Notes under the pieces: model-generated | What the model was told of the DNA's origin: nothing | Database searches by the model: none | What the model saw: only the letters and a program-made list of their open reading frames with translations | Shown: positions 4,842 to 14,775 of the stretch, in pieces | How the letters are laid out: every line of letters starts with the position of its first letter | Numbering within the stretch: position 1 is the first letter of the stretch | Made by a program: the position numbers and the translations under genes | From: Dictyostelium discoideum | Lineage: Eukaryota | DNA: 64,000 nucleotides | Direction of reading: 5' to 3' | NCBI GenBank assembly: GCA_000004695.1 | Contig: CM000154.2 | Location: forward strand, 4,768,001-4,832,000

Positions 4842-7800
4842 TTAATGATTGTTAATAATATCATTTAAAATCATTGATTCATTAATTTCCCAATCTTGAT
4901 GATTATATGAACCAATTGAAGTTAATAATTCTTTTGTGCTATTTGACATTTTTAACAAACTATTAATTGTAAAAGTTGTTAATAATAAATTTTGATTTTT
5001 GTGAATGTGGAATGTTGAATATCTTTTTGATGATTTTCCATTTGATTTTGAAACTAATTCAATCCATTCATCGAAATCTATTTCTTTACATTTAAAATTG
5101 TTTTCCAATACCCTATAAAATGATTTCATTTCCATTGAATTACCATTAAAATTATAAATTGAGATTGGTTTTGATTTATTTTGATTCCAACTGTTTTCAT
5201 TGAATATTAAATCAATTGTTGTTTTAGCTATGGTTGTGACTGGAGTTGAGAAAATCGATTTATGAATATTTGGATAATAACCAATCTCTTTTGAAGCTTT
5301 GATTAAAAGTGATATAAAATCATTTGAATGACCTATACCTGTTATTGGATTTGAGAATATATCTATAATTAAAATAGCAATGAAAAATGGTTATTAGAAT
5401 ATTATATACTAAATTTAATCGATTGAAATGTTAACAATAATAATAATATGCTACATACCAGGTGGTCTAATAATGATTGATGGTATACCTCTTGATTCAG
5501 CTGCATTTGTTATAAGTTTCTCTGAAATAACTTTAGATTGAATATATCCAATTGGTGTAGAATTAAAACTTGGAACTGAATTTGTTTCTTCAAAATCCTC
5601 TTCATCTTTAAAAGGATGATTAATGAATACTGCAAGTGATGAAAAATGAACTATTAATTTTTGTGAGCTATTATTTGAAACTGATAATTTTATAATTTGA
5701 TTAACACTGTTAACATTTACAGTTTTACTTTCTTCATAGTTTGATTTTAAATTTATATCTGCTGCTGAATTAATAATAATATCACATTCATTTGAAAGTT
5801 TTAAATAATCTTGTTCAGTTAAACCAAATTTGTCTTTTGAGATATCACCAATAATTGGAATGATTTTAATTAATTGATCTTCATTTATTTGATTATTATT
5901 ATTGTTACTATTATCACTGTTTGAATTACTACTATTTAATTTATCATTTGATATGTTACCTGTATGATTGATTATTTTTGTTTTTCTTTTTGGAGATTCT
6001 TTATTCATATCTATTAATTGATGTTTCTTTAAATTATTAATAATTACATCGATTGGATTTGTTAGTTTTGAATTATTTCTTATTAAACAATAAATTTTTG
6101 ATATATTATTCACTTTAATTAATTCAATTAATAAATATGCACCTAAGAATCCTGTTGAACCTGTTAAGAATATTGATTGACAATTATTATTATTATTATT
6201 ATTATTATTATTATTATTATTATTATTATTATTATTATTATTATTATTATTATTATTATTATTATTTAAAATATTTTTAATTGAATATGGTCTTGAAATG
6301 ATCGATTCATTTAATTTAGTTTCATTTTTAATAAACTCATCAAGTGATTGTTGTTCTTTTTTAATGTTATCATGATGATTGCTATTATTATTATTATTAT
6401 TATTATTATTTTTATTTTTATTATGGGCAGATTTAATAATTTCAATTGATTGATTGATTTTATTATTTTGTAATTGTTGAATTGTGATAATATTATGACC
6501 TAATTGATTATCGACAAAATTCTTTAATTGTACAATTACTAAACTATCCATACCATATTGTGAGAGTTGTAAATCTTCATTGATTTTGGATTCATCAATT
6601 GATAATATTTCACTGATTTTATTTAAAATTGTTGAACGAATAATTTCATTATTATTATCATCACCAGAGAAAGATTTGATTTGATTTGATTTTTTAACAA
6701 TATTAATTTCAAAATCAAATTTTGAATGATGTTGATTTGTTAAAGTTGATGGTAAAACTTCAAAATTGAAATCTGATAAACAATAGTTTGGATATTGATG
6801 TTGATTTTGAATGAATAGATCTAATGAACTAATAACGAGTTGAGGTGAGAATAGATTTGAAAGAGTACTCTTTAACATTGTTTCAATTGCATTATTACGT
6901 GATACGAAACCAGTTGATGATATGGCACCTAAATTAATGGCTAAAGATGGTAATCCAATTGAATGTCTATACTTTGATAATGAATCGATAACATTACATG
7001 CACTAACATAACAACATTGTTTATCTGATCCAAATATTGAAACTACTGATGATGCCATTATGAATTGTTTGATATTCCATGAACGATTAATCGATTGATT
7101 GTGAAGATTAATTGCTCCAATTGTTTTAGCACCATGTGTAATATTTAAACGATTCATATCTACTTTTTGAACATCACAAATATCATTCATAAATGCAAAA
7201 TGAATGATTGAATCAATATTTGTAATATTTTCATTTAACTCTAATTGATTCAATACTTGATTGACTTTAGTTGAATCTTCAATATCGATTTGATTGAAAT
7301 GGAATTTAATAATATTATCTTTTTTAAATTTAGTTTGATTGATTAATAATTCTAATTCCCATTTTAATTTTGATTTTGAAAGTATTATAATATTTTCAAT
7401 TGAATGGTTTGAATATTTAACCAAATATTTTAATATTTCTAAAACAATACCAGTTTGACCAGTGAGTAAAATATTTTTACCAATATTTAATTTTGAAATA
7501 TCATATGAATGTTTCATGATTTGATTGTTATTATTTTGATAAATATTATAAATTCTATTGAATTCATCTTGATTATGATTAACAATGATTTTACCAATAT
7601 GTTTTCTTTGATTTATATATTCAATTGCATCTTTAAATTGATTATTTGAATATTCAATGATTGGTACGCTTGGCTCTAATTTATTTGAATTTATCATTTT
7701 AATAATTTTCTTTATATAGCTTTTGATTAATTTACCAGGGAAATCTATGACCTCTACGTTAAAGTAACCCACATTAAATTTGTAATGATTATTTGTCATA

Positions 7801-13800: not shown

Positions 13801-14775
13801 CATCCGATGAAAATGTATGACATTTTCCTGTTGGACTTAACATATCTAATTGTGTGAATGATTTTGAAATGTATGGATCTATAAAATAAAATTTTTTATT
13901 TGATATTTAATATATAATTTTTTTACTTTTTTTTTTTTTTTTAATTAATCACATACTTAATATAAAATTAACACCACCAACAATTGAAACATTTGATTTA
14001 TTTGATTTAATTGAATTATATCCACAATTAATTGCATTTGATGAACTTGAACAAGCTGTATCAATTGTTAAATTTTCACCTCTATTTTTTTTAAAAAAAA
14101 AAGGGAAATGACAATTAACATATAATTATAGTTTTGTGATAAAAGTAAAGATAAATCAAAACTTACCTAAAATCAAATGAAAAACCAATTCTATTTGCAA
14201 TGGAATGAGTTGTTGAACCAAAAATATTATTTTGAGTTTCGAATGGTGATTTTTGAAGATCATTATAATCAATAGTACTACTACCGATAAATGTACTTGT
14301 ATTAGTCCCACGTAAACTAATTGGATCAATACCACTATCTTCTAATGCTTCCCATACACCTGTTTGTTGATTTTATTTTAAAAACATTATTAATAAATAA
14401 ATAAATAAATAAATAAATAAATAAATAAATAAATAAATAAATAAATAAATAAATACATTTTAATAATAATCTTTGTTGAGGATCGATTGAACTGACATTA
14501 TCATAACTTGGATTAATGGCAAAGAAGATTGGATCGAATTGTTTCCATTCATCAAGTGGAAGTAAACCAGCAAACTTTGAAACGACTTCACCATTTAAGT
14601 AATAATTATCAGACCATCTTTCAGATGTTGTAACGATTCCATCCAATCCATTCAATAATTCATTAAATAATTGATTTGGTTTCGAAATAGATTCTTTTAA
14701 ATTACCACTTGGAAATCTTAAACCAATACCGATCACTGCAACATCATCATCATTTTTATCAATATTTTCTGTCAT
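4842..14775 (-). CDS. Type I iterative reducing polyketide synthase, paralog 1, KS-AT-DH-cMT-ER-KR-ACP-R (thioester reductase). Seven exons: 14457..14775, 14167..14359, 13957..14080, 13420..13869, 13147..13340, 5459..13048, 4842..5362.
   Basis: Exon 1 reads [24 protein letters not shown] (KS start). Then TIDTACSSS (KS Cys), [12 protein letters not shown] and NIGHTEG (KS His). In the large exon: GHSLGE (AT), [13 protein letters not shown] (DH HxxxGxxxxP), [11 protein letters not shown] (C-methyltransferase), [14 protein letters not shown] (ER), [12 protein letters not shown] (KR), GMDSL (ACP Ser), [15 protein letters not shown] (terminal NAD(P)-binding reductase). Intron borders GTATTT/AACAG, GTAAGT/AATAG, GTATGT/TTATAG, GTAAGT/AACAG, GTAAAT/GATTTAG, GTATGT/TATAG all keep one frame. 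The final exon continues the R domain to stop at 4842. Confidence 0.9.
14395..14455. repeat. (ATTT)n / (AAAT)n microsatellite inside PKS intron 1. The paralogous, longer array is at 27680..27760.
   Basis: Direct tetranucleotide repeat. The ORF track reads through it as LFIYLFIY. Confidence 0.9.

Follow-up and report, generated by a model that had tools for sequence, protein, structure and literature searches.

How does a highly reducing polyketide synthase (PKS) of Dictyostelium discoideum release its finished chain? The question is raised by a gene in a 64,000-nucleotide (nt) stretch of contig CM000154.2 (GenBank assembly GCA_000004695.1, positions 4,768,001 to 4,832,000 of the forward strand), referred to here as the window, within which all coordinates are given. 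This gene occupies 4842..14775 of the minus strand, in seven exons separated by six introns, and encodes a protein of 3,133 amino acids (aa) with the domains ketosynthase (KS), acyltransferase (AT), dehydratase (DH), C-methyltransferase (cMT, or MT), enoylreductase (ER), ketoreductase (KR), acyl carrier protein (ACP) and reductase (R). We read it, at a probability of about 0.82, as an iterative, fatty acid synthase (FAS)-like highly reducing type I PKS of the D. discoideum PKS (DdPKS) family, with a terminal thioester reductase (TR).

Gene model and domain order

The open reading frame (ORF) listing of the window holds a 2,506-aa minus-strand ORF at 12971–5451, surrounded by shorter minus-strand ORFs, with KS motifs upstream and a 97-aa ORF downstream. 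The spliced gene runs from an ATG at 14775 to a TAA at 4844–4842, exactly the limits given in a preliminary description of the locus, which had been made from the letters alone. Its exons are 14775–14457, 14359–14167, 14081–13957, 13878–13420, 13341–13147, 13048–5459 and 5362–4842, and the joined coding sequence of 9,402 nt contains a single stop codon, the terminal one. All six introns are GT..AG, 78–98 nt long and 6–18% GC, in a window of approximately 20% GC throughout, as is typical for Dictyostelium. A (TTTA)n microsatellite makes up nearly all of intron 1 (14360–14456, 97 nt), as it does in the tandem copy described below (27646–27758, 113 nt, minus strand).

A Pfam profile search with the spliced protein returned KS, AT, a weak DH, C-methyltransferase, ER, KR, ACP and NAD_binding_4, the same KS-AT-DH-MT-ER-KR-ACP-R order that had been claimed at the outset. 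The KS (aa 10–391, 13265..14748, minus strand as for all PKS domains), whose coding sequence is broken up by introns 1–4, matched PF00109 (E=1.5e-61) and PF02801 (E=2.3e-27) and possesses the catalytic residues Cys181 (DTACSSS), His320 (HGTGT) and His363 (GHTEA). The AT (aa 566–887, 11679..12644; Acyl_transf_1, PF00698, E=1e-43) carries its catalytic Ser657 within GHSLGE, and malonyl specificity is suggested by SFHT (Phe761). The AT is followed, beyond the DH (discussed below), by the C-methyltransferase core (aa 1488–1603, 9531..9878; Methyltransf_12, PF08242, E=1.3e-12), in which motif I for S-adenosylmethionine (SAM) reads LEAGGGTG, the ER (aa 1932–2253, 7581..8546; ADH_N, E=8.8e-7, and ADH_zinc_N_2, E=1.1e-8) with the nucleotide motif HSAAGGIG, and the KR (aa 2291–2474, 6918..7469; PF08659, E=2.8e-22) with LTGQTGIV. 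The only ACP (aa 2560–2650, 6390..6662; PF23297, E=3.3e-32, and PF00550) has its phosphopantetheine serine, Ser2599, in GMDSL (6543–6545). The KR, ADH_N/ADH_zinc_N_2 and ACP matches all exceed the Pfam cut-offs, the protein forms a single module, and chance is excluded because for most domains the E-values fall between 1e-61 and 1e-9. Poly-Asn runs fill the linkers between DH and MT and between ACP and R.

The ten motif strings of the preliminary description do succeed one another as stated, starting in the spliced protein at residues 178 (DTACSSS), 320 (HGTGT), 655 (GHSLGE), 1488 (LEAGGGTG), 2065 (HSAAGGIG), 2292 (LTGQTGIV), 2596 (GMDSL) and 2723 (a 15-residue reductase string), with two corrections. 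Its GHTEG occurs in the unspliced ORF only (GHTEGKLIN*), where the GT donor context of intron 4 supplies the last G, and the spliced protein reads GHTEA at residue 362; the placement of the DH motif is taken up below. The full reductive loop that it described is there as far as the presence of all domains and catalytic residues goes, which says nothing on activity.

Identity of the terminal reductase

The terminal domain (aa 2720–3133, 4845..6182) begins approximately 70 residues after the ACP. NAD_binding_4 (PF07993) matched residues 2725–3007 at E=4.4e-47, with 160.8 bits against a cut-off of 20.1 and coverage of profile positions 1–256 of 258, and the C-terminal region is in this respect the NAD_binding_4/R domain that had been expected. 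Since PF07993 also takes in fatty acyl-CoA reductases (FARs), the assignment was narrowed by four further tests. The top NCBIfam model was the thioester-reductase model TIGR01746 (E=1.5e-52), followed by the Lys2-type model (TIGR03443), MxcG and CAR. By sequence, the PDB entry closest to it was the terminal R domain of MxaA (4u7w, E=7e-28). A thioreductase from a type I PKS was likewise among the best matches (8v1x, E=9e-19), and a plant FAR (7eoz) reached only E=1.9e-5.

These rankings bear on whether the domain could be a fused FAR of the male sterility type, acting on free acyl-CoA and not on the ACP-bound product. FARs gave PF07993 its name and fall within it, and 7eoz does appear as a weak match. 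However, the TIGR01746, MxaA and PKS-TR matches are stronger than the FAR match by more than 20 orders of magnitude, the Pfam output of the spliced protein contains no C-terminal Sterile domain, and a place some 70 residues behind an ACP is the defining position of carrier-protein-dependent reductases. A fused FAR is therefore extremely unlikely.

Residues of the predicted active site were examined in a 26-sequence alignment of the R domain with Dictyostelium and bacterial thioester reductase-like proteins. For the homolog search, a 44-aa Asn/Ser-rich insert was removed from the query, since poly-Asn words swamped a query of ACP, linker and R domain; all matches in the homolog database were shorter than ~1,600 aa. 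The nucleotide motif TGSTGFLG (aa 2726–2733, 6141–6164) is conserved as TGxTGFLG, as is the arginine of CLxR, here Arg2754 in CLIR, which is predicted to bind the NADPH 2'-phosphate and is kept in 21 of the 22 aligned sequences covering that column. The catalytic triad comprises Ser2901 (5637–5639) and Tyr2932..Lys2936 (5532–5546). Tyr2932 and Arg2958 (Tyr213 and Arg239 in alignment numbering) are invariant, Lys2936 is found in 25 of 26 sequences, and Lys217, Ser181, Asn156, Val157 and Gly112 of the alignment are each kept in at least 90%. At the first triad position the majority of Dictyostelium sequences have Ser, and most bacterial sequences have Thr.

An intact site of this kind also speaks to a second alternative, that the domain is of the redox-inactive R* type and either releases the chain by Dieckmann/Claisen cyclisation or has a structural role only. 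Such domains have the Pfam family and the fold in common with this one, and PsoA-type terminal domains of hybrids of PKS and nonribosomal peptide synthetase (NRPS) are among the weaker PDB matches (9x2c, E=2e-8). Yet Tyr2932, Lys2936, TGSTGFLG and Arg2754 are intact and conserved across the family, the losses that are the hallmark of R* are absent, and its nearest relatives (MxaA, 8v1x, CAR) are genuine reductases. A highly reduced chain would, moreover, come without the beta-dicarbonyl or tetramate context for Dieckmann chemistry. We consider an R* domain very improbable.

Structure comparison agreed with assignment to the thioester reductases. An AlphaFold model (pLDDT 83, pTM 0.88) was obtained for a complete Dictyostelium homolog (P0007, 44% identical), with the exon-6 and exon-7 pieces of the window protein supplied as alignment rows. 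Foldseek placed MxaA first (TM 0.80–0.82), then a Streptomyces coelicolor PKS thioreductase, CAR R domains and a Mycobacterium tuberculosis NRPS R domain, with FAR and sugar epimerases lower (FAR 7eoz at rank 27). The two-subdomain fold includes the C-terminal subdomain for substrate binding, as exon-7 residues align to MxaA through its residue 342 and to the C-termini of bacterial TRs. The Asn/Ser-rich insert (5889–6020, minus strand) falls in the Rossmann half of the domain and is not found in MxaA or the bacterial reductases. With TIGR01746 as best model, MxaA as closest structure and the NAD(P)H motif and Ser/Tyr/Lys triad conserved, the proposal of a thioester reductase is well supported.

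The last exon

Intron 6 (5363..5458, minus strand, 96 nt, GTATGT..AG, phase 1) splits the R domain after IIIRPP (codon 2961), and exon 7 contributes the last 173 residues, which hold the C-terminal subdomain. The R region does continue through one more intron to the stop, as the preliminary description had it, by way of intron 6 (5458–5363) and then exon 7. Were this 3'-end model wrong, exon 7 would be unjoined and translation would end at 5451 (…IIIRPPGM*), with the R domain reduced to a truncated Rossmann half-domain, and the long ORF of the mechanical listing does end at 5451. Against this, the canonical GTATGT..AG intron restores the frame, and the Pfam, MxaA and multiple alignments pass the exon 6/7 junction free of gaps, the Pfam match reaching profile position 256 of 258 beyond it. 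In the MxaA alignment at the junction, a 14-residue string of the window protein stands opposite ILRPGRVTGHSRTG, and in the multiple alignment exon 7 fits the C-terminal subdomain of bacterial reductases.

Two independent gene models from other Dictyostelium assemblies (P0002 and P0013) have the same junction peptide, IIIRPPDIFSNPxTGIG. Between the two paralogs of the window, intron 6 is 72% identical, with indels, versus ~96% at the protein level for the R coding region. A truncated protein is thus scarcely credible, and the joining of the last exon, already proposed from the letters, is correct because profile and structure alignments cross the junction uninterrupted.

Points against the assignment and an atypical dehydratase motif

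Several observations weigh against our reading of the gene. At 179 bits, the TIGR01746 match fails to reach the curated cut-off (213), because the Asn/Ser-rich insert splits it. Thr is the first triad residue of characterised bacterial and fungal TRs, where the window protein has Ser (bioRxiv 10.1101/2023.05.23.541938). The AlphaFold model is that of homolog P0007 and not of the window protein, and the searchable literature yielded no biochemical evidence on the reductase domain of any Dictyostelium PKS. In the DH, PKS_DH_N (aa 952–1040) scored 24.6 bits, under the 27-bit gathering score, and the motif of the catalytic His979 reads HxxxDxxxxP, with Asp for the canonical Gly (11376–11405). Finally, the ratio of nonsynonymous to synonymous substitution rates (dN/dS) between the gene and its tandem copy, ~0.4, is fairly relaxed.

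The DH spans approximately aa 952–1250 (10590..11486, minus strand). In the PDB it matches D. discoideum Pks16 best, in the DH region (9nju, E=1.4e-52), with the curacin DH domains (CurK/CurF) next, and these matches identify the weak DH as a real DH fold. The canonical signature HxxxGxxxxP, which had been reported for this domain, is absent from the His979 motif; the sole literal match in the protein, at residue 1159, overlaps LDTCLHG, the motif of the second catalytic residue Asp1155. His979, Pro988 and Asp1155 are retained.

The Asp variant is common to all seven close PKS-TR paralogs examined, in the window and at three related loci (L001, L002 and L003), and in the second copy of the window lies near 24693 (minus strand). 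The motif is canonical (Gly; VKGK) in Pks16 as well as in homologs from D. purpureum, D. dimigraforme and Cavenderia. Because it is conserved in the seven close paralogs, the variant is probably tolerated.

A tandem paralog and selection on the pair

A tandem paralog of the gene is found at 18202..28077 (minus strand). Its 3,108-aa product, also with the R domain at its end, is 92.5% identical to that of the first copy, and its exon-intron structure is identical, with the same six introns. The ACP motif is GTDSL in this second copy versus GMDSL in the first. Identity between the copies is 94–100% in the KS region and introns 2–4, and 85–90% in DH, ER and ACP; the high identity of the former therefore suggests recent gene conversion at the 5' end of the pair.

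Both copies are intact: their reading frames run to 9.3–9.4 kb, and each retains its six splice sites and its full set of catalytic residues. Between them dN/dS is 0.39 overall, 0.36 in R, 0.46 in exon 7 and 0.57 in ACP and MT, at a dS of ~0.09, and is below 1 in every domain, a pattern of purifying selection on both copies. One or both could nevertheless be silent or decaying, the architecture persisting without current function. This would be in line with the recency of the duplication (dS ~0.09) and the ratios of 0.39 overall and 0.57 in ACP and MT, and two loci of a related genome, described below, hold a truncated PKS (L003) and, at a syntenic position (L004), an R-domain remnant only, hence such genes do get lost. 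Set against these, the completeness of ORFs, splice sites and catalytic residues in both copies and a dN/dS below 1 in every domain make decay of the pair improbable.

Related Dictyostelium loci

Tandem PKS-TR paralogs with 88–92% DNA identity are present in other Dictyostelium assemblies (L001 and L003). At L003 (8240–12520; GCA_054859385.1, JBTAPF010000012.1, 4.58–4.60 Mb) there are three tandem PKS-TR genes, the middle one apparently internally deleted to a 227-aa KS fragment and a 681-aa AT..R chimera, an example of decay within the family. At L004 (10001–11096; same contig, 4.84–4.86 Mb) only an R-domain remnant was detected, as gene calls of 222 and 97 aa inside a TRAF-like cluster that aligns with window 5922–2981 and 2253–1 at ~84% DNA identity. 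At the L004-syntenic locus the PKS body thus appears to be subject to presence/absence variation. No full-length ortholog of the window PKS gene was found among L001, L003 and L004.

The paralogs of L001 and L003 and the L004 remnant are consistent with the rapid lineage-specific turnover reported for PKS genes (PMC3188802). As the closely related genome retains a syntenic R-domain remnant only, the pair may be a lineage-specific gain.

Other genes in the window

The PKS pair is accompanied by a family of minus-strand genes encoding a Sina-type RING domain with zf-TRAF and MATH domains (535–1935, 3962–4318, 17331–17759, 34337–35917, 42461–43798 and 46825–47973), whose proteins have a common 22-residue N-terminus. 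A small ORF of 118 or 142 aa with a RING finger only follows each PKS copy. These short RING-only ORFs may have been duplicated along with the PKS, as copies that are either truncated or interrupted by introns.

On the plus strand, a xanthine dehydrogenase/aldehyde oxidase gene (54800–59065; FAD_binding_5, CO_deh_flav_C, Ald_Xan_dh_C, MoCoBD_1/2) consists of two ORFs joined over a 189-nt GTAAGT..AG intron with an (ATA)n run. The resulting protein has 1,358 aa. A minus-strand ORF of 1,617 codons (49183–54036), strongly strand-biased in composition (AT nucleotide skew -0.47, GC 29%), gave no Pfam match and encodes Thr/Pro-rich TTSPPII repeats, tracts of poly-Asn and an extended (EKERL)n repeat of coiled-coil-like character; its listed start is TTG, and the true start is probably an ATG two codons in. 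Two adjacent minus-strand ORFs (38120–39682 and 40227–41405), the second with a match to the N-terminal part of AAA_11 (Upf1/DNA2-type helicase), are probably exons of one helicase gene.

Comparison with known systems

The window pair is probably the adjacent genes pks38/pks39 of chromosome 5. The 3,108 aa of the second copy would match pks39 in length, and the 1,358 aa of the xanthine dehydrogenase model would match that enzyme. Exact-sequence look-ups in the searchable collections gave no match for either spliced PKS protein or for three neighbouring TRAF-like proteins encoded by single ORFs. The gene pks39 is located on chromosome 5 (PMC10755179).

A 2025 study modelled all 40 D. discoideum PKSs (PMC12828403). 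An offloading domain follows the ACP in 21 of the 40; in two it is a chalcone synthase, and in 19 it is most likely a monomeric thioester reductase, and a figure marks the TR-bearing PKSs and highly homologous adjacent genes (PMC12828403). The KS-AT-DH-MT-ER-KR-ACP-R architecture is already described for the DdPKS family and is therefore not new, and the window gene is an ordinary member. Its KS-AT-DH-MT-ER-KR-ACP core and C-terminal TR are identical to those of the TR subset, from which nothing architectural differs, and the tandem highly homologous pair, short AT-rich introns and poly-Asn tracts are likewise as in that subset. Asp for Gly in the DH motif is a feature of its sub-clade that neither Pks16 nor the D. 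purpureum and Cavenderia homologs share.

Beyond Dictyostelium, MxaA of the myxalamid PKS-NRPS (4u7w/4w4t) is the closest match both in sequence and, with a TM of ~0.8 derived from the homolog model, in fold. The two R domains are alike in TGxTGFLG, in GYxQSK and in their position after a carrier protein. MxaA differs in being bacterial and in terminating a modular assembly line, in its identity of only ~22–27%, and in having Thr where the window protein has Ser2901; the window domain has in addition the 44-aa insert, placed after the second Rossmann strand region. MxaA reportedly carries out a four-electron reduction to a primary alcohol. Four-electron reduction has been described for other TR domains (bioRxiv 10.1101/2023.05.23.541938).

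Activity on acyl-CoA has been demonstrated for two reductase domains of apicomplexans, Cryptosporidium CpFAS1-R (PMC2995488) and the TR of Toxoplasma TgPKS2 (TgTR), the latter with four-electron reduction to the alcohol, an Asn-Tyr-Lys triad and use of NADH only (bioRxiv 10.1101/2023.05.23.541938). Like the window PKS, these are eukaryotic microbial type I FAS/PKS systems with an R domain instead of a thioesterase; unlike it, they are modular with multiple modules, and the likeness is by description only. The logic of release, from an ACP or peptidyl carrier protein (PCP) thioester to an aldehyde, is also that of the Lys2/CAR enzymes and of fungal highly reducing PKSs that end in an R domain. 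Identity to this group is low, and Lys2/CAR have an adenylation domain that activates free acids, whereas the window PKS has no adenylation domain.

Predicted mechanism and product

With the thioester reductase in place, the following cycle can be proposed. The AT (Ser657) would charge the phosphopantetheine arm at Ser2599 of the ACP with malonyl units, and the KS (Cys181/His320/His363) would extend the chain through decarboxylative condensation. In each round the beta-keto intermediate could be alpha-methylated by the SAM-dependent cMT, and its beta-keto group could then be reduced (KR), dehydrated (DH, His979/Asp1155) and saturated (ER). The completed acyl-S-ACP would pass to the C-terminal TR, an extended short-chain dehydrogenase/reductase (SDR) domain, where NAD(P)H held at TGSTGFLG and Arg2754 would give hydride to the thioester while Ser2901/Tyr2932/Lys2936 polarise the carbonyl. 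Collapse of the thiohemiacetal would free the aldehyde, and a second, non-processive reduction may yield the primary alcohol, as in MxaA. Each domain is predicted from sequence to be active, and the cofactor would be NADPH rather than NADH.

The expected product is an aliphatic aldehyde or alcohol, saturated for the most part and perhaps methyl-branched. Reductive release, as claimed in the preliminary description, is favoured by the assignment of the thioester reductase. The two- or four-electron outcome of a TR is not predictable from sequence (bioRxiv 10.1101/2023.05.23.541938), and hence aldehyde versus alcohol cannot be assigned.

A bolder proposal is that the Gly-to-Asp change in the DH, together with the Ser-Tyr-Lys reductase, leads to an unusual product, for instance a long-chain aldehyde or alcohol, methyl-branched and in part hydroxylated, acting as an ecological or developmental signal. 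We regard this as unlikely and put it forward as speculation; if true, such an aldehyde or alcohol would be a compound class not yet known from amoebae.

Implications for Dictyostelium polyketides

Among D. discoideum PKSs, products are known for Pks1, Pks5, Pks16 and Pks37 only (PMC12828403). The prediction of reductive release already follows from the published family-level annotation; to this our analysis adds, for one tandem pair, verification of the gene model and of the catalytic residues, together with the atypical DH motif of its sub-clade. Reductive release would set the end-group of the polyketide as an aldehyde or alcohol and not an acid, and in an organism where approximately four of 40 PKS products are known this would narrow the targets for Dictyostelium metabolomics.

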